A stretch of DNA of 51,913 nucleotides, from assembly GCA_004292795.1 (NCBI GenBank), contig RDXI01000018.1, positions 1-51,913 on the forward strand, given 5' to 3'. Below, piece after piece: positions 13,157 to 41,447 of this stretch. Made by a program: the position numbers and the translations under genes. How positions within the stretch are numbered: the stretch's first letter is position 1; every line of letters begins with the position of its first letter. Under the pieces are notes generated by a model. That model was not told the origin of the DNA, ran no database searches, and saw only the letters and a program-made list of their open reading frames with translations. Source of the DNA: Bacteroidota bacterium (GTDB lineage Bacteria > Bacteroidota > Bacteroidia > Cytophagales > Microscillaceae).

Positions 13157-16064
13157 ATGCCTCTCAAGTTAGACTTCGCGGACAGGTTCGAGCAACGTCA
13201 TCATGGCACACGCGCCCAAGACATTGCTGAAATGCTCCAAACCATTGGCGTACAAAGCCTTGACGAACTGATTGAAAAGACCGTTCCTGCGTCTATTCGC
13301 CTTCCCAAACCTATCAAGGTTACAGCCCCCAAAACAGAACAAGAATTTTTGGCTGATTTCAAGAAATTGGCAGGCAAGAACCAAGTGTTCAAATCGTTTA
13401 TAGGTATGGGCTATTATGATACGCACACGCCTAACGTTATTTTGCGCAATATCCTTGAAAATCCGGGTTGGTACACCGCCTACACGCCTTACCAAGCCGA
13501 AATAGCACAAGGTCGCCTCGAAGCCCTTATCAATTTCCAAACGATGGTTATGGATTTGACAGGTATGGAAATTGCCAATGCTTCCCTGCTTGACGAAGGC
13601 ACTGCGGCGGCTGAAGCTATGACCATGCTTCACAGCTTGCGCAAAGGCACACGCAAAAGTGCAGAAACGTTTTTTGTGTCGGAACTTTGCCACCCGCAAA
13701 CCATCGATGTACTAAAAACCCGCGCTACACCGCTTGGCATCAACCTATTGATAGGCAATCACGAAACTGTCGACCTTACCTCGCCTGAAATCTACGGCTT
13801 GCTTCTGCAATATCCTGCTACCAATGGCGAAGTATTCGACTACACGAACCTTATCGCCACAGCAAAAGAACTCGGCATTTTTACCGCAGTAGCGACTGAC
13901 TTGTTGGCTCTCACTATCTTGAAAGCACCCGCTGAAATGGGCGCAGACGTGGCAGTGGGTTCTGCACAACGCTTGGGCGTGCCTATGGGCTATGGCGGAC
14001 CTCACGCGGCATTTTTTGCTACCAAAGACGAATACAAGCGACAAATTCCCGGGCGCATTATTGGGGTTTCCATAGATGCAGAAGGCAACAAAGCTTACAG
14101 GATGGCGTTGCAAACCCGCGAACAGCACATCAGACGCGAAAAAGCTACTTCGAATATCTGTACTGCCCAAGTATTGCTTTCTGTGATGGCGAGTATGTAC
14201 GGCGTATATCACGGACCTAAAGGCTTGCGTACTATTGCGGAACGTGTGTATGGCTTGACGCAACTTACCAAACAAGGGCTTGAGAAATTGGGCTTCGAAA
14301 TTGAGAACAAATATTATTTCGATACCATCACGGTTGTCTTGCCTGCTGACAAAATAGAGGCATTGCGCAAATCAGCTGAAAAAGTACAGATAAACTTCCG
14401 CTATTATGCAGAAGCAGGCAAGGTAGGAATCAGCTTTGACGAAGCCAAAACTACTGATGATGTAAACGCTATTTTCAAACTCTTCACCGCAGTAGGTAAG
14501 GAGCAAACCACGAAAGAAAAAACTGCCTTCACGACCTACACAAAAAGCCTTGCCAAAAACATCGAAATTCGCTTGCCTGATGACCTTATCCGCACAAGTG
14601 ACTACATGACGCACCCTGTTTTCAATACGCACCACACCGAACACGCGATGTTGCGCTATATGAAGCAGTTGGAAAACAAAGATTTGTCGTTGGTACATTC
14701 GATGATTGCGCTCGGTTCTTGCACGATGAAACTGAACGCAACGGCAGAAATGATACCCGTAACGTGGCGCGAATTTGGAGGCATACACCCCTTCGCTCCT
14801 CGCACACAGGCGCAAGGCTATACTGAATTGTTTACCAATTTGGAGAAATGGTTGTGCGAAATCACAGGCTTTGCGGGAACGAGCTTGCAACCCAATTCGG
14901 GAGCGCAAGGCGAATACGCGGGCTTGATGGCTATTCGTGCTTACCTACAACACAAAGGCGAGTCCGCTTATTCCTTCTTCGGCACATGGCACAAACCCTG
15001 CGAGTGCTGTCATGGCAGGTATGCAAGTAATTGTAACGAAATGTGACGAACATGGCAATATCGACTTGGCTGACCTTCGCGCCAATGCCGAAAAATACAA
15101 AGATAACCTTGCCTGCTTGATGGTTACGTATCCCTCGACTCACGGAGTTTTTGAGGAAGCTATCCAAGAAATATGCTCGATGATACACGAGTTTGGCGGA
15201 CAGGTATATATGGACGGTGCGAACATGAACGCGCAAGTGGGGCTTACCTCGCCTGCTATGATTGGCGCAGACGTTTGTCATTTGAATTTGCACAAAACAT
15301 TTTGTATTCCGCATGGAGGCGGTGGTCCTGGTATGGGTCCTATTTGCGTAGCTTCGCATCTTGTGCCTTTCCTACCTCACCACGCTGTAGTGTCTTTCTC
15401 CAATAGCAAAGAAACAGCCGTTTCTGCCGCGCCTTGGGGCAGTGCAAGCATCTTGACTATCTCGTATGCCTACATAGCCATGATGGGAGGCGAGGGCTTA
15501 ACCAACGCTACCAAAATGGCAATCCTCAATGCCAATTACATCAAAAAACGCCTCGAAGGGCATTACAACGCGCTGTATGCAGGCAAGAATGGTACTTGCG
15601 CCCACGAATTTATAGCCGATTGCCGAGATTTCAAGGCGCAAGGCGTAGAAGTGGCAGACATGGCAAAACGTTTGATGGATTACGGTTTCCACGCGCCTAC
15701 GGTTTCCTTCCCTGTGGCAGGCACACTCATGATAGAACCTACCGAGAGCGAAGACCGCGCAGAATTGGATAGATTTTGCGAGGCTTTGATTGCCATTCGT
15801 GAAGAAATACGCGAAATAGAGGCAGGCAAGGCTGAAAAAGGCAACAACGTTATCGTAAACGCGCCTCATACGGCTTTGATGGTTACCGCTTCGAATTGGG
15901 AAAAACCCTACTCACGCGAAAAGGCGGCTTATCCCCTTCCTTACCTGCGCGTAGGCAAGTATTTCCCTGCTGTTGCCAAAATAGACAACGCATACGGGGA
16001 CCGCAATCTCGTTTGTGCGTGTATTCCTGTAGAGGAGTACGCGAGTGAGGAGGCTGTGGCGTAA
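13157..16064 (+). pseudogene. gcvP: Glycine dehydrogenase (decarboxylating), the glycine cleavage system P protein. It is disrupted and split into two overlapping ORFs (13157-15046 and 14937-16064).
   Basis: Full-length colinearity with GcvP across both ORFs: GMGYYDTHTPNVILRNILENPGWYTAYTPYQ, the PLP site [18 protein letters not shown], and the C-terminal [10 protein letters not shown]. The frame changes at about 14960-14972. About nine conserved residues are missing there; E. coli has RNEGHRDIC between ES and LIPASAHG. Confidence 0.8.
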
Positions 16065-16075
16065 CGAACTTTTTT

Positions 16076-16121
16076 AGGTTGTTTGTAGTTATTGTAAAAA
16101 GGCTACAGACAACCTTTTTTA
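16076..16121 (+). terminator. Terminator downstream of gcvP
   Basis: Stem aggttgtttgtag/ctacagacaacct with one mismatch, followed by tttttt. Confidence 0.55.
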
Positions 16122-16151
16122 TCTCTTTCTAACCTAAAAACAATCAATCCT

Positions 16152-17345
16152 ATGAAAGAAACTAACCATTTATTTGAAGGCGAAGAATTTGCGCTTAATA
16201 CTCCAAAGGGGAGCAATATCATTCAAATCTCTGATGAAGATATTAATCAAAAATACAGACGAGGTGAAATACGCATTGTTACAGAACAAGCGCGTTATCC
16301 CCTTGATAGTATTGAAACTATGTTAGATACTGGTAAATACATATTAAATCCTGAATATCAACGTAGAAAACGTTGGGATAATGTGAGAAAATCTCGCTTA
16401 ATTGAGTCGTTTATTATGAATGTCCCTATTCCCCCTGTTTTTTTGTATGAGGTGGATTATTCAAAATATGAAGTAATGGATGGGCAACAACGCCTTACCA
16501 CAATTTATGATTTTTATCAAGGTAAATTTGAATTAGAAGGATTGGAACTCTGGAGCGAGCTAAATGGTAAAACTTATCAAAACCTTCCTGAACAAGTAAA
16601 AGGAGGTATAGATAGGCGTTATCTTTCTTCTATTGTGTTATTAAGAGAAACAGCCAAAAATGATATAGAAGCAGAAGAATTAAAAAAAATGGTCTTTGAA
16701 AGACTAAACAGTGGCGGGGAAAAATTAACCCCACAAGAAACAAGAAATGCTATATACAATGGGAAATTTAATCAATTGTGTTTGCGATTAGCAAAAAGTG
16801 ATGCTTTTAGAAAAATGTGGGGCTTGCCATTGGAAAGTGATAGTGAGATTAAAAAATTAAAAAGCGAACCATATAGAAAAATGGAAGATGCAGAATTAGT
16901 TTTAAGATTTTTTGCTTATCGTCATGTAAATGAATTAGTTTCTCCAATAGATAAGTTCCTTGATGCTTTTTTAGATAGAGCTAATAGCTTTTCTGATAAA
17001 CTTATGCAAGAACTTGAAGACATATTTATAAAGACTATAGATTTAATATATGCTATTTTTGGAAAAGATGCGTTTCTTTTGCCTATTAAAGTTCTAAAAT
17101 ACAAAACACCTTCAAAAACTGTATATGATCCTATGATGCAAGCATTCTCTACAAATTTACAGCATAAAGATATTTTGTTAGCTAAATGTGATGAGGTGAG
17201 GCGAAAAAGGTATGAAGACACAGATGTTCTTTTTATATCAGATAGTAAGTATTTATTTGATGGAAGGAAAAATAACAGAAATGATGTAATAGAGCGTATA
17301 GAATATTTTGATAAATTTATCAAATCATTTATCGAAACAACATGA
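16152..17345 (+). CDS. DUF262 (ParB-like nuclease/NTPase superfamily) domain protein
   Basis: PEYQRRKRW and DGQQRLTT are the signature motifs of DUF262 (PF03235). It has no DUF1524/HNH C-terminal domain. The gene is AT-rich. Confidence 0.75.
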   Translation: MKETNHLFEGEEFALNTPKGSNIIQISDEDINQKYRRGEIRIVTEQARYPLDSIETMLDTGKYILNPEYQRRKRWDNVRKSRLIESFIMNVPIPPVFLYEVDYSKYEVMDGQQRLTTIYDFYQGKFELEGLELWSELNGKTYQNLPEQVKGGIDRRYLSSIVLLRETAKNDIEAEELKKMVFERLNSGGEKLTPQETRNAIYNGKFNQLCLRLAKSDAFRKMWGLPLESDSEIKKLKSEPYRKMEDAELVLRFFAYRHVNELVSPIDKFLDAFLDRANSFSDKLMQELEDIFIKTIDLIYAIFGKDAFLLPIKVLKYKTPSKTVYDPMMQAFSTNLQHKDILLAKCDEVRRKRYEDTDVLFISDSKYLFDGRKNNRNDVIERIEYFDKFIKSFIETT

Positions 17346-18178
17346 ACCAGTTTTCCCTTGACAAATTCAAAAACGAACTTTCTCAACTGCGTGCATACCT
17401 ACAACACATTCAAAACGTGAATGAAGTGATAGGTTATGCACCTGTGGAAACAGATAGCGAAGTTATAACTATGCTGATAGAAAAGTTAAGAAAACAAGAG
17501 TTTGATAGTAATTTTAGAATAAATAGAAAAACTTTTGAGTACAAAGCAGTTATTATATCGCTGTATGGTACTCTCGAAAGAACTATAGAAAATTGGGTAA
17601 AGGAATATCTTGATGCTTTGTCGGGTATTGTTACAGATTATGCTAAACTTCCTGATAAAATAAAAGATAACCACTTTAAAAATTCTCTTGAATTGATTAC
17701 CGATAAATTAAGCAAAAAAGACATAGCTCCAAAATACCAACATTTGAGAAAAGAGGAGGTTTTGAAAATACTGAATCAATGTGTAGAACAAGGGACAGAG
17801 TATAAATTTAATGCAGATGCTTTTTTATTATCTTCTGGGAATTTAAAACATGATAAAATAGCACCAATATTAGCAAATTTGGATATAGATTTGAAACAAA
17901 CTACTTTTCTAAAAGATAAATCTGAAAATGAAAAAAAAGCTATCTATGCTCTCATAGATGAACTTGTAGAAAGGCGTAATGAAGTAGCACATGGTTCTGA
18001 TAGTGTTATTGACAACTTATTAGAAGTATCTTTAATTGAAGAACATATCATCAACTTAGAGATTTATGTCAGTGCTATATTTGACATTCTCAATCAAAGG
18101 CTTATCCGTTTTGAAGCTGAGGAGTCAGGGGCTTTTTTTTTTAGTAAACATAGCGAAGGATACGGTTTGGCAACATAA
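17342..18178 (+). CDS. HEPN-domain protein (predicted RNase)
   Basis: Its start overlaps the DUF262 stop by 4 bp (ATGA). An Rx4H motif (ERRNEVAHG) lies near the C-terminus within an all-alpha context. A T10 run at 18133-18142 joins this frame to the downstream ORF 18066-18422. Confidence 0.55.
   Translation: MNQFSLDKFKNELSQLRAYLQHIQNVNEVIGYAPVETDSEVITMLIEKLRKQEFDSNFRINRKTFEYKAVIISLYGTLERTIENWVKEYLDALSGIVTDYAKLPDKIKDNHFKNSLELITDKLSKKDIAPKYQHLRKEEVLKILNQCVEQGTEYKFNADAFLLSSGNLKHDKIAPILANLDIDLKQTTFLKDKSENEKKAIYALIDELVERRNEVAHGSDSVIDNLLEVSLIEEHIINLEIYVSAIFDILNQRLIRFEAEESGAFFFSKHSEGYGLAT
18133..18142 (+). repeat. T10 homopolymer at the junction of the HEPN ORF and an out-of-frame downstream ORF
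   Basis: gggg-ctttttttttt-agt. A one-nucleotide slip would fuse the HEPN protein to about 95 extra residues (LVNIAKDTVWQHK...KNNQK). The downstream ORF has no start codon of its own. Confidence 0.7.
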
Positions 18179-18431
18179 AATTGTAGGCATTTTTTTAGAG
18201 GATTATACAGTCAAAATAGATGATTTCGTACTTATTGAAACACCTGATAAAGAATTTTTAAAAGAAAGGATAGTAGGAATAGGAACGGGGAGCGGTAAGG
18301 ATTTAAAGAAACATACAAATCTTTCTGTTATAGATAAAACAGAAGTAGCTATTATCGTCAATGCTCATCTAAGTAACAATGCAAAGTCCCATAAATTCTA
18401 TTTGAAAAACAATCAAAAATAGAATAAAACT

Positions 18432-18818: not shown

Positions 18819-18862
18819 ACAATGCCACTACATCAAATCTTTTTATCCAAAAAATAAAAAAT

Positions 18863-19053
18863 CTTTTCGCCTTTTCTAGTGTTAGAAAAATGAATGACAA
18901 ATTTTAGTTTTTGATAACCTTATCAATCATTCATTTTTCGACACCTGAAAAGAATAATCTTAGATTTGCTTTTCAGGTGTCGAAACGCTGAATAAAAAAA
19001 GTATGTTTATATCCACATTTGATAGCGTTTCTAACACCTGAAAAGGCGAAAAG
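18863..19053. repeat. 191-bp nested-palindrome element, MITE-like or an sRNA/regulatory structure. It holds four alternating copies of ACACCTGAAAAG.
   Basis: Outer inverted repeats lie at 18863-18888 and 19028-19053 (24/26 match). The inner hairpin at 18936-18985 has a perfect 17-bp stem. The intergenic region is 440 bp long. Confidence 0.7.
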
Positions 19054-19223
19054 CCTCTGCCTCTGCGCCCAATAGTTCTACAATCTTTTGATAAGACATG
19101 ACAGATATAAGGGTTTTGATGTTGTAAGAATTTGCAAAGTTACAGCTTAGAAACATGGCACACAACCTCTGTGCTTTCCTGCTTGTTTTGGGCTTGCTAT
19201 ATACAACATGATAGGATATTTTG

Positions 19224-19231
19224 TAACTTTG
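19224..19231 (+). promoter_or_regulatory. Candidate Bacteroidetes -7 promoter element (TAACTTTG, fitting TAnnTTTG) for miaB
   Basis: Matches TAnnTTTG about 27 bp upstream of the ATG at 19258. Confidence 0.3.
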
Positions 19232-19257
19232 CACCCTAAAAAATTGTTGTTTTTACT

Positions 19258-20745
19258 ATGGAAAATCTTATCCAAGACATTGATATACTCACGCCAGAGG
19301 CGCAAGAAGGGTGCGAAACGGTGAAAGTATCTGTAGAAACCTCTACAGGCAAGGCGCGAAAATTATATATTGAAAGCTATGGTTGTCAAATGAACTTCTC
19401 AGATAGCGAAATCGTAGCGTCCATTATGCACGAAGGAGGCTTCGACACGACCTCAAGCGAAGAAAATGCCGACCTTATTTTCCTCAATACTTGTGCTATC
19501 CGCGACAATGCCGAACAGAAAATTCGCCACCGCCTCCAACACCTAAACGGGCTGAAAAAACGCAAGCCAAGCCTGATGATTGGCGTGTTGGGCTGTATGG
19601 CTGAACGCTTGAAAATCAAACTTATAGAGGAGGAAAAAGTGGTCGACCTCGTGGCAGGACCCGATGCCTACCGCGACTTGCCTAACCTCGTGAGCGAAGT
19701 AGATGGCGGACAAAAAGCTATGAACGTATTTTTGTCAAGAGATGAAACCTACGCAGACATCGCGCCTGTGCGCCTCAATTCCAATGGCGTAAGTGCTTTT
19801 GTGTCTATTATGCGTGGTTGTGATAATATGTGTTCGTTCTGTGTTGTGCCTTTCACACGCGGAAGGGAGCGCAGTCGAAACCCTCATTCTATAGTAGCCG
19901 AAGTACAAGATTTGTTCGACAAAGGCTACCGCGAAGTTACACTTTTGGGGCAAAATGTGGACTCGTATCTTTGGAGTTCGAACCCTGATGTTATTTCTAT
20001 CTTAGGTGAGAAAAAAGCTGTAAAACAAGGCGCAGACCTGACAGGCGTAGAAATCGTGAACTTTGCGAACTTGCTCGAAATGGTGGCGCAGGTAAGCCCG
20101 CTTGTGCGAGTGCGCTACTCGACCTCGCACCCCAAAGACATGACAGATGATGTTCTGCACATCATGGCGAAGTACGAAAACATCTGCAAGTACATTCACT
20201 TGCCTGCCCAAAGTGGCAACTCTCGTGTCTTGGAATTGATGAACAGAGGCTACACAAGGGAAGTATATTTGGACAGAATCCGCGCCATTCGTGCCATTTT
20301 AGGCGATGATTGCGGAATTTCTATGGACTTGATAGCGGGCTTTTGCACCGAAACAGACGAAGAACACCAAGACACGCTTTCGCTCATGCAAGAAGTGAAA
20401 TACGATTTTGGCTATATGTTCTACTATTCAGAACGCCCCAATACACCCGCCGAAAAACGCTTGAAAGACGACATTTCCCTCGAAGTAAAGAAAAAACGTT
20501 TGGCGGAAATAATCAATCTCCAAATGGAACACTCGCTTGAGCGCAATCGCCTTGACGTAGGCAAGACTTTCAAAGTGTTGATAGAAGGCACTTCGAAACG
20601 CTCTGAAGACCAACACATGGGACGCAACACTGCCAACAAAGTAGTCATTTTCCCCCGAAGCGATAAATACCAAAAGGGCGACTATGTAACAGTGAAAATA
20701 CACGACTGCTCTGCCGCGACTTTGTTTGGTGAGATAGTAGCATAA
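19258..20745 (+). CDS. miaB: tRNA-2-methylthio-N6-dimethylallyladenosine synthase (radical SAM methylthiotransferase)
   Basis: N-terminal MTTase domain ([10 protein letters not shown]). Radical SAM motif [12 protein letters not shown]-terminal TRAM domain. Length 495 aa. Confidence 0.9.
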
Positions 20746-20751
20746 ATTTGT

Positions 20752-20848
20752 AGGGGCAACCCTTGTGGTTGCCCTTTGTGTAAATACGCATTTTTATTTT
20801 AAACACGATTTGTGTCCGAAAAAGGGCAACCACAAGGGTTGCCCCTAC
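20752..20848. repeat. Pair of inverted REP-like hairpins (GGGGCAACCCTTGTGGTTGCCC and GGGCAACCACAAGGGTTGCCCC) separated by 40 bp
   Basis: Hairpins at 20755-20775 and 20825-20845 are reverse complements of each other. A third copy forms the terminator at 1946-1976. Confidence 0.75.
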
Positions 20849-20926
20849 ATTTTGAAATTTCTGTATATTTTTTGTGGCGTGTGTACTCACGCGCCATATT
20901 TTTCTAAAACAAAACAACCTTCGAAT

Positions 20927-22291
20927 ATGAAAATCAAACAACTGAACATAGAGAACTACAGGGGCTTCGAGCAGGCAAGCATTACCTTTCCCGACAACAA
21001 TTTGGCTGTTTTCATTGGCGCGAATGGAGCAGGCAAGACGAGTGTGTTGGATTTGGTGGCGAGTTTTTTGGAGGATTTTTTGTTGGGGATACATAACTAC
21101 TATCCTTTACAAAATAAAGAAATTAACCATAAAAAAGGTGTAACAAATGAATTTATCAATATTATAAATGAAGCAAATGCTAAATATTCTTTTGGTATCA
21201 CACATACAAACGAATTTGCCTTTGATGAAAAAGACTTAAAATATAGGGCAAAAGAATTACATAGTAAGATGTTTTTAGAAAATATAGAATTATCCAGAGA
21301 TATTACTGGAAATGGCTTATACTCAGAAAGACAAATTTTTACACCTGAAATTAAACTGAAAAGAACAAAGGAAATATTAGGAAACCCATTGTTTAGCACA
21401 CCAATTTTTGTTTATTTTCAGTTAAATGTTACTAAAGCTAAACGAGAAAGATATTACTCAATTCCGCAACTTGCTGTTTATGAGGAACTTACATCAAATA
21501 TAAATAATTTTGCTGTTTTCAAAGCTTGGTTCAAGCAAGAAGAAGATTTTGAAAATCAAGAAAAAGTAAACCAAGAAAATCTTGCCTACCGAAACCCCAA
21601 ATTAGAGATAGTTCGAAAGGTATTGGAAACTTTTTTCCAAAAAATAGAAAGTCCCGTTTTTGCCAAAATGCGCATACACAGGCAAGGAAGTAAAATATTT
21701 GATTTCAATAAAAAATTTTCAGCAGATAGTTTATTGATTGATAAAAATGGACAACCTTTCGAGATAGAACGACTTTCTTCAGGTGAAAAATCGTTGATGC
21801 TTTTGGTGGCTGACATAGCGAGGCGATTGTCTATAGCCAATCCTGCGTTCTCGCCTACTGAAGCCCTGCAAAAAGGCGAAGGCGTGGTGTTGATAGACGA
21901 AATAGAGCAACACTTGCACCCGCGTTGGCAACGTTTGGTCTTGCCTGCCCTACAAACCACATTTCCGAATGTACATTTTATTGTTACTACTCATTCGCCC
22001 CAAATAGTGAGCAGTGTTCCGCGTGAGAGCGTTTTTATTTTGGATAATTTCCAAATAAAAGACTACAAACCTTACACACAAGGACGCGACAGCAATTCTA
22101 TTTTACAAGATGTGTTCGGGGTGGAAACTTATCCACAAGCGTACAAAGAAAAATTGCACCAATTACATCAACTTATCCATGATGAAAAAGCAGACCAAGC
22201 CCAAAAGTTAATGCAAGAACTTATCAGTTATTGGGGCGAAAACGACAGGGAAATAAAACGCGCTCAATTATATTTAGAGGACATTGTATGA
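20927..22291 (+). CDS. ptuA: Septu defence system ATPase PtuA (AAA_15/AAA_21-type ABC-like ATPase)
   Basis: Walker A FIGANGAGKTS. Walker B and H-loop VVLIDEIEQHLHP ... TTHSP. The start is set at the ATG after the hairpins, and the ORF-track extension to 20765 is spurious. There is an AT-rich internal segment. Confidence 0.75.
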   Translation: MKIKQLNIENYRGFEQASITFPDNNLAVFIGANGAGKTSVLDLVASFLEDFLLGIHNYYPLQNKEINHKKGVTNEFINIINEANAKYSFGITHTNEFAFDEKDLKYRAKELHSKMFLENIELSRDITGNGLYSERQIFTPEIKLKRTKEILGNPLFSTPIFVYFQLNVTKAKRERYYSIPQLAVYEELTSNINNFAVFKAWFKQEEDFENQEKVNQENLAYRNPKLEIVRKVLETFFQKIESPVFAKMRIHRQGSKIFDFNKKFSADSLLIDKNGQPFEIERLSSGEKSLMLLVADIARRLSIANPAFSPTEALQKGEGVVLIDEIEQHLHPRWQRLVLPALQTTFPNVHFIVTTHSPQIVSSVPRESVFILDNFQIKDYKPYTQGRDSNSILQDVFGVETYPQAYKEKLHQLHQLIHDEKADQAQKLMQELISYWGENDREIKRAQLYLEDIV

Positions 22292-22968
22292 AACACATCA
22301 AAAAACAAGCTAAAGAACCTGCCACTATCACAGAAATAAAGTCTGTAAACGGTACTTTTGACGACCTCGACAAAGAACAAGTACAAAATGCTTTGCTCGA
22401 GGAGCAGGGCTATCTTTGTGCCTATTGTATGCGCAGAATTAGCCGAGAGTGGAATCCTGATGCCAACAAATGGAAAATTGAAATAGAGCATTACAAGCCA
22501 CAAGAAAAGTATCCTGAAAAAGCTTTAGACTACAGCAATATGCTGGGTGTTTGCAACGGCACAGCAGGCGAAAAACTGCATTGCGACAAAACCAAAGGAG
22601 GCAAAGCAGATGGAAAAGTAGAGCTAAAAAAACTCAATCCTTTGGACAGCAACTGCGAAACAATGCTTCAATACCTTCCTGATGGCACTATTCAAAGCGT
22701 GAATGGTGATGCAGAAGTTGAGTCCGACTTAGACAAAGTGCTAAATTTGAATGACACCAAACTAAAAGAATTTCGCGCAGATGCTATCGAGAAGGCATGG
22801 CGAGAGTTCCAAGAAAAACACAAGAAAAATAAAGGGAGTTGGACTAAAAAGATGTTTCAAGATGAGATAAATCGCCTAAAACAACCCAATAAAAAAGGCA
22901 GATACACCGAATATTGCCAATGTCTTATCTACTTCTTTGAGAAAAAGCTAAAAAGAGCGCAAGCATAA
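22288..22968 (+). CDS. ptuB: Septu defence system HNH endonuclease PtuB
   Basis: Overlaps the ptuA stop by 4 bp (ATGA). HNH motif CAYCMRRIS...IEHYKPQ...[21 protein letters not shown], as in the TIGR02646-type HNH. Length 226 aa. Confidence 0.75.
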
Positions 22969-38144: not shown

Positions 38145-38699
38145 TTACTTTATGTGAGCAAAATGTTCTCTTGCGTACACAAACCGTTTATCTGGTGGAA
38201 ATAATGAAGTTTCCACAACAGGTCCCGTAACGTGATTGCATACCAACCTTGCATCTGCAGGTTGGGCTTCCCAACACAATGGATTAACATTTTCTCCGAA
38301 AACTGTACGCAATACCTCCAATGTGTAATCATATAGAGTAGCCATAATCCTTACATCTTCAGGTTTGTCATGATCTAATGGTTCATGGTGCATATAATAG
38401 CCCATGACCTCAGAACAAAATTTCTTATAACGTGGTGTATCGAGAATGTGAGCGTGCCAATAAGGATCAACAACATCTGATATTGCATGCATATTTGCAG
38501 AATTTATAGCACCTATAGCATAATACTGTTTCAAAGCGTAAACAGCATCTTCAGCAGGTATAGGTATTAGTCCTTTAGACCTCAGTTCTTTTTCTGCAAA
38601 TTTTACCACAAATGAATAATCTTCTGCATCTATCCCTTTAAGTATAGCCCATTGTTTGTCGCTCAAATCAACTTCTACGGTGTTTGATACCTTCTTCAT
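38145..38699 (-). CDS. Hypothetical protein (184 aa), AT-rich
   Basis: ORF with compositional shift. No motifs recognised. Confidence 0.4.
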   Translation of the reverse strand: MKKVSNTVEVDLSDKQWAILKGIDAEDYSFVVKFAEKELRSKGLIPIPAEDAVYALKQYYAIGAINSANMHAISDVVDPYWHAHILDTPRYKKFCSEVMGYYMHHEPLDHDKPEDVRIMATLYDYTLEVLRTVFGENVNPLCWEAQPADARLVCNHVTGPVVETSLFPPDKRFVYAREHFAHIK

Positions 38700-39284: not shown

Positions 39285-40304
39285 ATGCTACTTGACCAAG
39301 ACTATTTCGCCTTTTTAGGAGAAGTAAAGGATTTGATACGCAAAGCGCAAATACGCGCAAGCCGCGTGGTAAATAAAGAAATGATAACGCTTTATTGGGA
39401 TATTGGGCGTGTGATAGTGGAAAAACAAGAACTGTTGGGCTATGGTAAGTCTGTAGTGGAGCAACTTTCCAAAGATTTACGCGATGAGTTTCCAAATGTA
39501 GATGGCTTTTCTGCTCGCAATATGTGGGATATGCGTCACTTGTACCTTGCCTACAAAGACGAGCCAATTCTGCGACAGCTTGTCGCAGAAGTTCCTTGGA
39601 AACATAATACCATGATAATGAGTCTAAAAGACAAAGAGGCGCAAGCATTTTACCTGCTGAAAGTGAAAGAATTGCATTGGTCGCGTGAGGTGCTAACCTT
39701 TCAAATCAAAAACAAGGCTTACCAAAACTTACTTACCCAATCTAAAACACATAATTTTGGAAATACCCTGCCCGAAGCCCAAGCAGAGGAAGCTAACAGC
39801 ATTTTGAAAAGTGAATATACGTTTGATTTTTTGGGCTTACAGGAAACAGTTTTAGAAAAGGTTTTGGAAAATAGGCTCATGGAGCATTTGAAACAGTTTT
39901 TGCTTGAATTGGGCTATGGCTTTACGTTTGTGGGGCAACAATACAGAATCGTTTTGGGGCAGAAAGATTATTTTATCGATTTATTGTTTTTCCATAGAAA
40001 ACTCAAATGTTTGGTAGCCATTGATTTAAAAATTGGCGAATTTGAACCCGAATATGCAGGCAAGATGAATTTTTACTTGGAAGTGCTTGATGATACGGTA
40101 CGTATGCCTGACGAAAACCCCTCAATAGGCATTATTCTATGCACCAAAAAAGACGACTTAGAAGTTGAATATTCTTTGAGAAGCCAAAATAAACCTATAG
40201 GCGTAGCAGAATACAAACTATACGAACAACTGCCCGAAGAACTAAGCAAACAACTTCCCTCTGCTAAAGACATCAAAAAATACCTAAACTCCAAAAAGAA
40301 ATAA
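39285..40304 (+). CDS. YhcG/DUF1016-family PD-(D/E)xK nuclease-like protein, paralog 1
   Basis: Typical DUF1016 N-terminus (DYFAFLGEVKDLIRKAQIRASRVVNKEMITLYWDIGR). C-terminal PD-(D/E)xK core YFIDLLFF...LVAIDLKIGEF. Confidence 0.7.
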   Translation: MLLDQDYFAFLGEVKDLIRKAQIRASRVVNKEMITLYWDIGRVIVEKQELLGYGKSVVEQLSKDLRDEFPNVDGFSARNMWDMRHLYLAYKDEPILRQLVAEVPWKHNTMIMSLKDKEAQAFYLLKVKELHWSREVLTFQIKNKAYQNLLTQSKTHNFGNTLPEAQAEEANSILKSEYTFDFLGLQETVLEKVLENRLMEHLKQFLLELGYGFTFVGQQYRIVLGQKDYFIDLLFFHRKLKCLVAIDLKIGEFEPEYAGKMNFYLEVLDDTVRMPDENPSIGIILCTKKDDLEVEYSLRSQNKPIGVAEYKLYEQLPEELSKQLPSAKDIKKYLNSKKK

Positions 40305-40306
40305 AA

Positions 40307-40330
40307 CAGGCAAGACTCGCGTCTTGCCTG
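40307..40330 (+). terminator. Perfect palindrome CAGGCAAGAC-TCGC-GTCTTGCCTG directly after the YhcG-1 stop. No T-tract on the plus strand.
   Basis: 10-bp perfect stem. It is the same stem family as 38072 and 41448. Confidence 0.45.
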
Positions 40331-40433
40331 CTTGGTATGCTCAAAAAAAAATTTTTATTTTTGTTTAATTGAGTATTTGTTATGTATATTTGCATACTTT
40401 ACTTCTTTAAAAATCTCTAACCAAGTAAAAACT

Positions 40434-41447
40434 ATGCGCTCTGAAGATACCCTCTACCAAAATGTTCGCGAAATCATCTTGAACGCGAAGGCAAAAATCA
40501 ACCACACTGTCAATTTTACAGTGGTCGAAACCTATTGGCTTATAGGCAAGTACATCATCGAAGAAGAACAGCAAGGCAAACACCGCGCTGAGTATGGAAA
40601 ACAACAGATGAAACTTTTGGCTGAAAAGCTAACAGATGAGTTTGGTAAAAATTATGATAGAAGCAATCTTTTGCGCATGAAGAATTTTTACCTGCTTTTC
40701 CCAATTCGTGACGCACTGCGTCACGAATTGAGTTGGTCGCATTATCGCTCTCTTTTGCGCGTGGAAAGTGAGCAGGCAAGGCATTTTTATATCGCGGAGG
40801 CTATCTCGAATAATTGGGGAACGCGGGCTTTGGATAGACAAATCAATACGTTGTATTATGAACGCTTGCTTGCCTCCCAAGACAAAACACCCGTGAAACA
40901 AGAGATGTACGACAAAACAAAGGATTTAGCACCCGAAGACATCTTGAAAGACCCCTATATTTTGGATTTTCTGCAAATAGAAACACGCAAAACTTACCTC
41001 GAATCCGAACTCGAACAGGCTTTGATGGACAAGCTAAACGATTTTTTGTTGGAGTTAGGCAAGGGCTTTGCTTTTGTGGGAAGGCAAAAAAGAATAAGCA
41101 CCGAAACGAAAGATTTTTATATTGATTTGGTGTTTTACAACTATATTTTGAAATGCTTTGTGTTGATTGATTTGAAAATTGATGAACTTACACATCAAGA
41201 TATTGGGCAAATGGATATGTATGTGCGGCTTTTTGAGGATAAATACAAAGGTTCAGACGACAATCCGACTATTGGCTTGATACTCTGCACGCACAAAGAC
41301 CAAACTATAGTAAAATATTCAGTTTTGCATGAAAGTAAACAACTTTTTGCCTCCAAATATATGCTTTACTTGCCTACCGAAGAAGAACTAAGAAAGGAAA
41401 TAGAGCGCGAAAAGTATTTGATAGAACGCGAAAGGGCAGATAAATAA
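40434..41447 (+). CDS. YhcG/DUF1016-family PD-(D/E)xK nuclease-like protein, paralog 2
   Basis: Co-linear with paralog 1 (ETYWLIGKYI..., FYIDLVFYNYILKCFVLIDLKIDEL). Start set at MRSED. Confidence 0.7.
   Translation: MRSEDTLYQNVREIILNAKAKINHTVNFTVVETYWLIGKYIIEEEQQGKHRAEYGKQQMKLLAEKLTDEFGKNYDRSNLLRMKNFYLLFPIRDALRHELSWSHYRSLLRVESEQARHFYIAEAISNNWGTRALDRQINTLYYERLLASQDKTPVKQEMYDKTKDLAPEDILKDPYILDFLQIETRKTYLESELEQALMDKLNDFLLELGKGFAFVGRQKRISTETKDFYIDLVFYNYILKCFVLIDLKIDELTHQDIGQMDMYVRLFEDKYKGSDDNPTIGLILCTHKDQTIVKYSVLHESKQLFASKYMLYLPTEEELRKEIEREKYLIERERADK

Follow-up and report, generated by a model that had tools for sequence, protein, structure and literature searches.

A nested palindromic element upstream of miaB and its homologous copies in a second Cytophagales genome

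The 191-bp element upstream of miaB in a Cytophagales contig belongs, with slightly better than even confidence on our part, to a small family of palindromic repeats that are mosaic in build, non-coding and located in the intergenic regions of Cytophagales. The element was studied in contig RDXI01000018.1 (the window, which is the whole stretch of 51,913 nucleotides that was analyzed). The family occurs in at least two genomes, in unrelated gene contexts; its copies end sharply at the outer repeats, and some of its members are truncated. It was previously undescribed, and its kind, a MITE- or REP-dimer-like palindromic intergenic repeat, is conventional. The element is an ordinary repeat rather than an operator of miaB or a proven island boundary, and the structure upstream of miaB is explained without regulation of miaB.

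Architecture of the Element

The element occupies positions 18863-19053, and the minus strand of the contig corresponds to the "forward" strand of the family. It starts 45 nt past the stop codon of a 128-aa ORF, in a gap of 439 bp between this ORF and miaB (18819-19257), which the initial annotation had given as 440 bp. The two outer inverted-repeat arms, CTTTTCGCCTTTTCTAGTGTTAGAAA (18863-18888) and TTTCTAACACCTGAAAAGGCGAAAAG (19028-19053), are 26 nt each and complementary at 24 of 26 positions (92%). They enclose a perfect inner hairpin, TTTCGACACCTGAAAAG / CTTTTCAGGTGTCGAAA (18936-18985), whose 17-nt arms (18936-18952 and 18969-18985) are 100% complementary and flank a 16-nt loop centered on CTNAG. 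The nested palindrome that the initial annotation had described, with outer 26-bp repeats around a perfect 17-bp hairpin, was thus confirmed in its coordinates and sequences.

Further, two side hairpins lie between the outer and inner stems. The first, of the "AATGAATGA" type (18885-18939), has a perfect 13-bp stem GAAAAATGAATGA/TCATTCATTTTTC (18885-18897 / 18927-18939), and the second, of the "CGCT" type, is formed by GAAACGCT / AGCGTTTC (about 18982-19030) around a variable loop. The element is therefore a four-way cloverleaf and not merely two nested stems. The GC content of the element is 31%.

A 12-mer, ACACCTGAAAAG, had been reported to occur in the element four times in alternating orientation. 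Three copies were exact (18941+, 18969- and 19034+), whereas the fourth, CTTTTCTAGTGT at 18872-18883 in the outer arm CTTTTCGCCTTTTCTAGTGTTAGAAA, was degenerate with 2 mismatches. The three matches of the 12-mer compare with 0.43 expected, and none of 100 shuffles reached three; for the 26-mer arm, two matches with at most 3 mismatches were found and 0.00 were expected. Chance was therefore excluded as the source of these repeats. The folding energy was -74.8 kcal/mol for the plus strand and -77.3 kcal/mol for the minus strand, compared with about -31 and -35 kcal/mol for dinucleotide shuffles (z = -11.3 for both strands). In every full copy of the family, including those described below, the cloverleaf was 16-22 kcal/mol more stable than two separate, side-by-side hairpins.

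The building block of the element is a 17-18-nt motif, CTTTTCAGGTGT(N1-3)GAAA(A), which occurs four times in alternating orientation and which is itself only weakly palindromic (4-5 A-T-rich pairs). Three conserved spacer modules separate the motif copies, namely the "CGCT" hairpin, the 16-nt center with CTNAG and the "AATGAATGA" hairpin. In a single strand, the outer motifs are predicted to pair together and the inner motifs to pair together, giving the cloverleaf.

Homologous Copies in a Second Cytophagales Genome

An exact-pattern scan for the inner hairpin across one genome per species (185,579 species) returned 14 loci, including one from a Cytophagales MAG (L003; JAYTNK010000536.1). There the inner hairpin recurred with an unchanged loop length of 16 nt, and all of the 190-bp architecture was present around it, on the opposite strand. 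Homologous elements thus exist in one other Cytophagales genome. The other 13 loci were rejected as unrelated short-loop hairpins, mostly from Clostridia, which scored near noise against a family profile (nhmmer, built from an alignment of the copies).

Two full copies in L003, a (L003:671-867) and b (L003:2046-2241), scored 203 and 198 bits against this profile. A half copy spanning the second inner arm through the outer arm (L003:5166-5254) scored 50 bits, and an internally deleted copy lay within L003:3490-3657; all four copies and fragments were found within 4.6 kb. For the 18863-19053 element, the minus strand scored 184 bits and the plus strand 60 bits. The forward-strand score was thus about three times the reverse, indicating that the family has polarity.

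The neighbors of the L003 copies are thioredoxin-like, beta-propeller, CarboxypepD_reg-like and epimerase genes in mixed orientation. This context, which includes convergent gene ends, is unrelated to that of miaB and the defense cassette in the contig. Further, the flanks of the 18863-19053 element resembled those in L003 no better than shuffled sequence did, so that the similarity is limited to the 191 bp from one outer repeat end to the other. A larger repeat unit including a promoter and a leader was rejected for the 18863-19053 element, whose flanks are unlike those of L003, but copies b and c within L003 do conform to such a unit. There, copies b and c had a common left flank of 109 nt (about 88-89% identity), and copies a and b a common right flank of 31 nt. 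These segments indicate that part of the cluster arose by local duplication or recombination, processes that agree with the clustering and the common flanks as well as transposition does. Further assemblies of the L003 organism were identical, and no further copy was present in the remainder of its 17-19-kb contig.

No transposase, RAYT, integrase or reverse transcriptase was encoded in the 52-kb contig or beside the L003 copies (including L031). There was no tRNA gene in the contig, and no direct repeat of 2-10 bp, as a target-site duplication would leave, flanked the 18863-19053 element or L003 copies a and b. The suggestion of a MITE or dispersed repeat was supported by homologues in unrelated contexts and by a similarity that ends at the outer repeats. 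A MITE in the strict sense is less secure, given that neither a target-site duplication nor a cognate transposase was found and that the observed copy number is low.

Copies were few in the other sequences searched. The contig contained one. The collection scans, which required exact matches and would have missed L003 copy b itself, returned no family member from viral contigs and eight inner-hairpin matches from metagenomes, all of them unrelated generic terminator hairpins. A blastn search against plasmids and phages yielded no family member, and no copy was found in loci totaling about 100 kb, which came from Cytophagales whose MiaB is 72-97% identical and from genomes with homologues of the cassette. 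The locus with a homologue of the L003 thioredoxin-like gene (61% identity, L034) had a different context and no element. In the literature, the 12-mer ACACCTGAAAAG matched only unrelated eukaryotic primers or sequences.

Two other nested palindromic elements, unrelated to the 191-bp family, were observed at L003:4919-5088 and L003:5285-5564. A 56-nt piece of the latter (...CGCTTCGCTCAAAATGAC...) recurs with 82% identity at L023:4057-4112 and L024:2441-2496, in close relatives of the organism of the contig. The element holding this piece is probably another dispersed Cytophagales repeat family.

Conservation of the Cloverleaf among the Full Copies

We compared the three full copies, namely the 18863-19053 element and L003 copies a and b. 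RNAalifold recovered the cloverleaf for all three with 59 pairs, and standard pairs filled 95.4% of the pair cells, compared with 43-53% when the partners were slid by 1-3 columns. Among the 59 pairs, 43 never varied and two changed on both sides (covaried). The identity between copies was 85-89% in paired columns and 52-60% in unpaired columns. The inner 17-bp stem was invariant in the three copies, and the loop edges TTGAnA-N14-TAAAAT of the "AATGAATGA" hairpin were kept in each of them. Further, the outer pair carries the motif variant ...GTGT-TAG/TCTA-AAA and the inner pair the variant ...GTGTCGAAA; each was retained in both genomes, which supports outer-outer and inner-inner pairing.

Thus, the sequence and not merely the pairing was conserved, which fits a protein recognition site better than freely covarying RNA helices. 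The pattern, drawn from three sequences, points to a putative sequence-specific recognition of the 17-nt motif in alternating orientation. We infer that the motif may be the recognition site of a putative trans-acting transposase or recombinase that spreads or maintains the element. If a dedicated enzyme does act at the 17-nt motif, a new mobilization system in Bacteroidota would be indicated.

L003 copies a and b were no closer to each other than to the 18863-19053 element. A divergence within L003 equal to that between the genomes would not be expected of a MITE that was active recently, and it hints that the element itself is under selection. This equality, the near-invariant stems beside loops of 52-60% identity and the TTGAnA-N14-TAAAAT hexamers leave room for another reading, to which we assign a small chance. 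Rather than decaying selfish DNA, the element would be an old four-way-junction module that is kept by selection and has RNA or single-stranded DNA as its active form, and its invariant 17-bp hairpin would be read by a putative Cytophagales protein. This reader could be a REP/RAYT-like or recombinase system new to Bacteroidota, or the partner of a cloverleaf non-coding RNA.

Transcription Signals around the Element and a Possible Structured RNA

A T-rich tract, ATTTTTTATTTTTT (18849-18862, minus strand), lies immediately past the outer stem and is terminator-like for leftward transcription. The promoter consensus of Bacteroidetes is TAnnTTTG, and on this basis we take two TAACTTTG boxes to be -7 boxes. 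One, at 19135-19142 on the minus strand, points at the element and is about 80 nt off its edge; the other, at 19224-19231 on the plus strand, precedes miaB. The two boxes are divergent and are located within a 12-nt inverted repeat (19133-19144 / 19222-19233), one in each arm.

The initial annotation had also considered a structured small RNA, and these signals bear on the possibility that the element encodes a functional one. Transcription of the minus strand would then yield a cloverleaf of about 190 nt, with its promoter about 80 nt upstream and the U-rich tract as its end. The positions of the minus-strand TAACTTTG box and of ATTTTTTATTTTTT are consistent with such a transcript, as is a TAATTTTG box about 75 nt upstream of L003 copy b, in a flank that is duplicated at copy c. 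However, neither the U-tract nor the upstream flank of the contig element was conserved at the L003 copies, and in place of a promoter segment, copy a has a gene that begins 25 nt off its 5' edge. A very stable fold conserved in the three copies, the strand polarity of the element, and stems conserved far beyond the loops in copies that are old also agree with a structured RNA. On the other hand, both strands fold equally well, covariation is rare and most pairs are invariant, so that the sequence and not the pairing alone is conserved. Transition-type mismatches on the forward strand comprised seven G-U and three A-C, a bias that was not significant. Further, a search of Rfam 15 gave nothing at the gathering thresholds, and under relaxed settings returned only generic miRNA-precursor hairpins far below the cut-offs. 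We consider a functional structured RNA unlikely.

Under the preferred reading, that of a palindromic repeat, we regard the element as a likely passenger at the miaB locus. Its predicted fold may form a strong barrier to transcription from both sides, between the convergent end of the cassette and the leftward promoter in the miaB upstream region; at this locus it is probably a passive two-way transcription barrier.

A short minus-strand ORF, MSYQKIVELLGAEAEAFRLFRC* (19031-19099), begins 45 nt outside the element and stops within its outer arm. Its first 16 residues, MSYQKIVELLGAEAEA..., are reminiscent of how class I fructose-bisphosphate aldolase (FbaB type) begins at its N-terminus, and searches of NCBIfam and the PDB gave no support for an aldolase identity. 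If aldolase-like, the ORF would be a truncated gene remnant with its own promoter. A conserved ORF running into the element was rejected, as its frame relative to the motif differs between the contig and L003.

The miaB Locus and the Adjacent Defense Genes

The DUF262/HEPN cassette that the initial annotation had placed upstream of the element was found there. The block upstream has a low GC content (32%, compared with 42% for the contig) and contains a DUF262/GmrSD_N protein (16152-17345) that matches PADLOC NsnA at 1e-71, a RiboL-PSP HEPN protein, and the 128-aa ORF, which had no matches in the family search. Directly downstream of miaB, a region of lower GC content (20765-22968) encodes a Septu-type pair consisting of the PtuA ATPase (PADLOC, 9e-102) and the PtuB HNH nuclease (3e-57). 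Thus, defense systems flank miaB on both sides, the NsnA-like DUF262 and HEPN genes on one and PtuA/PtuB on the other. The MiaB of the contig has no exact counterpart on record; its nearest matches are Cytophagales proteins of Microscillaceae, Raineya and Thermonemataceae.

The initial annotation had also raised a multi-site operator. Four transcription-factor sites would then control miaB or the cassette. Four conserved motif copies in a promoter-proximal intergenic region, and a motif sequence that is invariant as protein binding predicts, are in keeping with this proposal. However, some 170 nt separate the nearest edge of the element from the miaB -7 box downstream. The element is missing from relatives that have a 90-97% identical MiaB and the same promoter, and their similarity to the contig begins only at 19219. 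In L003, moreover, the same element stands between unrelated genes, including at convergent gene ends. An operator is therefore very improbable, and as an operator of miaB the proposal failed.

We compared the genes around miaB (19219-20860) among Cytophagales lineages (L023-L029, L035-L038 and L041-L042). The genes on either side of miaB differed in nearly every sampled lineage, even at 96-97% MiaB identity, and none of the loci reached through MiaB proteins of 78-97% identity contained the element. The similarity of the closest relative, L023/L024 (92.7% identical), to the contig spanned 19219-20860 only, so that the PtuA/PtuB flank is variable as well. miaB appears to sit at a hotspot of rearrangement or integration, and the spot beside the two defense cassettes is thereby flagged as a site of genome rearrangement. 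In L035, a phage-type integrase gene was observed next after miaB.

This variability of both miaB flanks between close relatives is one of the points in favor of a further explanation, akin to the island remnant or boundary of the initial annotation, namely that the element is a recombination or attachment site marking the right boundary of the DUF262/HEPN cassette, either as the crossover scar of an integration or as a hotspot of cassette exchange next to miaB. The 31%-GC element abuts the 32%-GC cassette within the 42%-GC contig, and defense systems are present on both sides of miaB. Further, the L003 copies separate single genes and have partly common flanks, which is cassette-like. Recombinase sites typically contain protein-binding motifs in alternating pairs, and by analogy those of the element may be of this nature.

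Several points speak against this explanation. The left edge of the cassette (16064-16152) contained no full or partial copy of the element but only the gcvP terminator hairpin and 30 nt. In the relative L039, with 78% nucleotide identity, the cassette is also located downstream of gcvP; this conserved gcvP-cassette junction indicates that the cassette is not a recent insertion. (The L039 contig, from Logan run SRR30952584, ends at the equivalent of 18562, about 300 nt short of the position of the element.) The cyanobacterial cassette homologues (L040) were without such an element, no integrase or recombinase was encoded in the contig, and the genes beside the L003 copies are ordinary ones in mixed orientation, not defense cassettes. 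We consider a recombination site at the cassette boundary quite unlikely.

The best homologue of the DUF262/NsnA-like protein was 79% identical (L039, syntenic), followed by homologues at about 61-67%. The named homologues at 61-67% were almost all cyanobacterial (Nostoc, Microcoleus and Calothrix), and in those genomes the DUF262/HEPN cassette is a two-gene unit. These mostly cyanobacterial closest homologues suggest a horizontal acquisition of the low-GC cassette.

Other Observations on the Contig

Two genes of the contig are split. The HEPN (RiboL-PSP) gene (17342-18422) consists of overlapping ORFs of 278 aa and 118 aa, whereas each homologue is one protein of 355-356 aa. The change of frame lies at a run of ten T (18133-18142), where L039 (78% identical) has nine T; a frameshift, phase variation and an assembly error are all possible causes. 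The glycine dehydrogenase gene gcvP (13157-16064) is divided into overlapping ORFs at 13157-15046 and 14937-16064, and near the junction, at 14950-14960, a few codons are apparently missing ahead of a conserved 13-residue stretch, which suggests a pseudogene or an assembly error.

Elsewhere in the contig, an 844-aa protein (4274-6808, minus strand) contains the shoulder and repeat domains of Major Vault Protein (PF11978, 5.5e-30; PF17795) and is bacterial MVP-like; its gene adjoins an adenylate/guanylate cyclase gene. Two tandem paralogous genes for YhcG/DUF1016 PDDEXK nucleases are present at 39285-41447. A DUF805b RNA motif (Rfam RF02914; 38722-38757, minus strand) scored 44.8 bits, above the gathering score, and lies upstream of a 184-aa ORF (38145-38699).

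Comparison with Known Systems

The attC sites of integrons, imperfect palindromes found between single-gene cassettes, function in the form of a folded single strand and conserve structure over loop sequence. The element likewise is an imperfect palindrome in which structure is conserved more than loop sequence, and its copies lie between single genes. Unlike attC, it ends in GTTAGAA or GTTCTAA and not in GTTRRRY, is accompanied by no intI, forms a four-way junction instead of a single bulged hairpin, and in L003 has housekeeping-like neighbors in mixed orientation. A retron msr/msd, which the PtuA/PtuB pair had brought to mind, was rejected, as the contig has no reverse transcriptase and the L003 copies have no such neighbors.

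Like MITEs of the Correia/NEMIS, ERIC and RUP types, the element is non-coding, belongs to the size range of 100-200 bp, folds over its whole length into a long hairpin and is located near gene ends. Such MITEs near gene ends can terminate or process transcripts. As in Correia, the terminal inverted repeats are 26 nt, and the element is a short non-coding sequence bounded by terminal inverted repeats (191 bp, 24/26 arms), as a MITE is by definition. A literature search found a single documented MITE in Cytophagales, that of the endosymbiont Cardinium (PMC9769881). Unlike MITEs, the family has no parental IS with matching ends in the contig or L031, and its most conserved part is an internal, "inside-out" inverted pair and not the termini; its copies are old and have diverged in their loops.

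With the BIME and REPIN concepts as general background, the element resembles REP/REPIN/BIME in that four motif copies alternate and three spacer modules are conserved across three copies. As in REP and BIME, it is intergenic, often between convergent genes, and has truncated and clustered derivatives. REP dimers consist of alternating units, include heterodimers and structured spacers, and fold separately or as one large stem-loop (PMC3733652). The units of the element are similarly heterodimeric and could fold either separately or into a single large stem-loop. In REPs, the palindromic unit has a conserved tetranucleotide tag, GTAG or CGTC, at one of its ends (PMC3733652), whereas the motif CTTTTCAGGTGTCGAAA has neither of them. 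Further, no RAYT is present in the available sequence, and the copies are very few, compared with tens to hundreds for REP. The host also differs from those of surveyed REPs, being a member of the Bacteroidota (order Cytophagales), a phylum that the REP survey names once only, as Bacteroidetes (PMC3733652).

Membership of the family in either MITE or REP is thus not established, and the element is a low-copy member of the general kind "palindromic intergenic repeat." Repeats of this kind are well catalogued in Proteobacteria and Cyanobacteria, and to them the family adds a clearly bounded mosaic palindromic repeat with an unusual "inside-out" conserved core.
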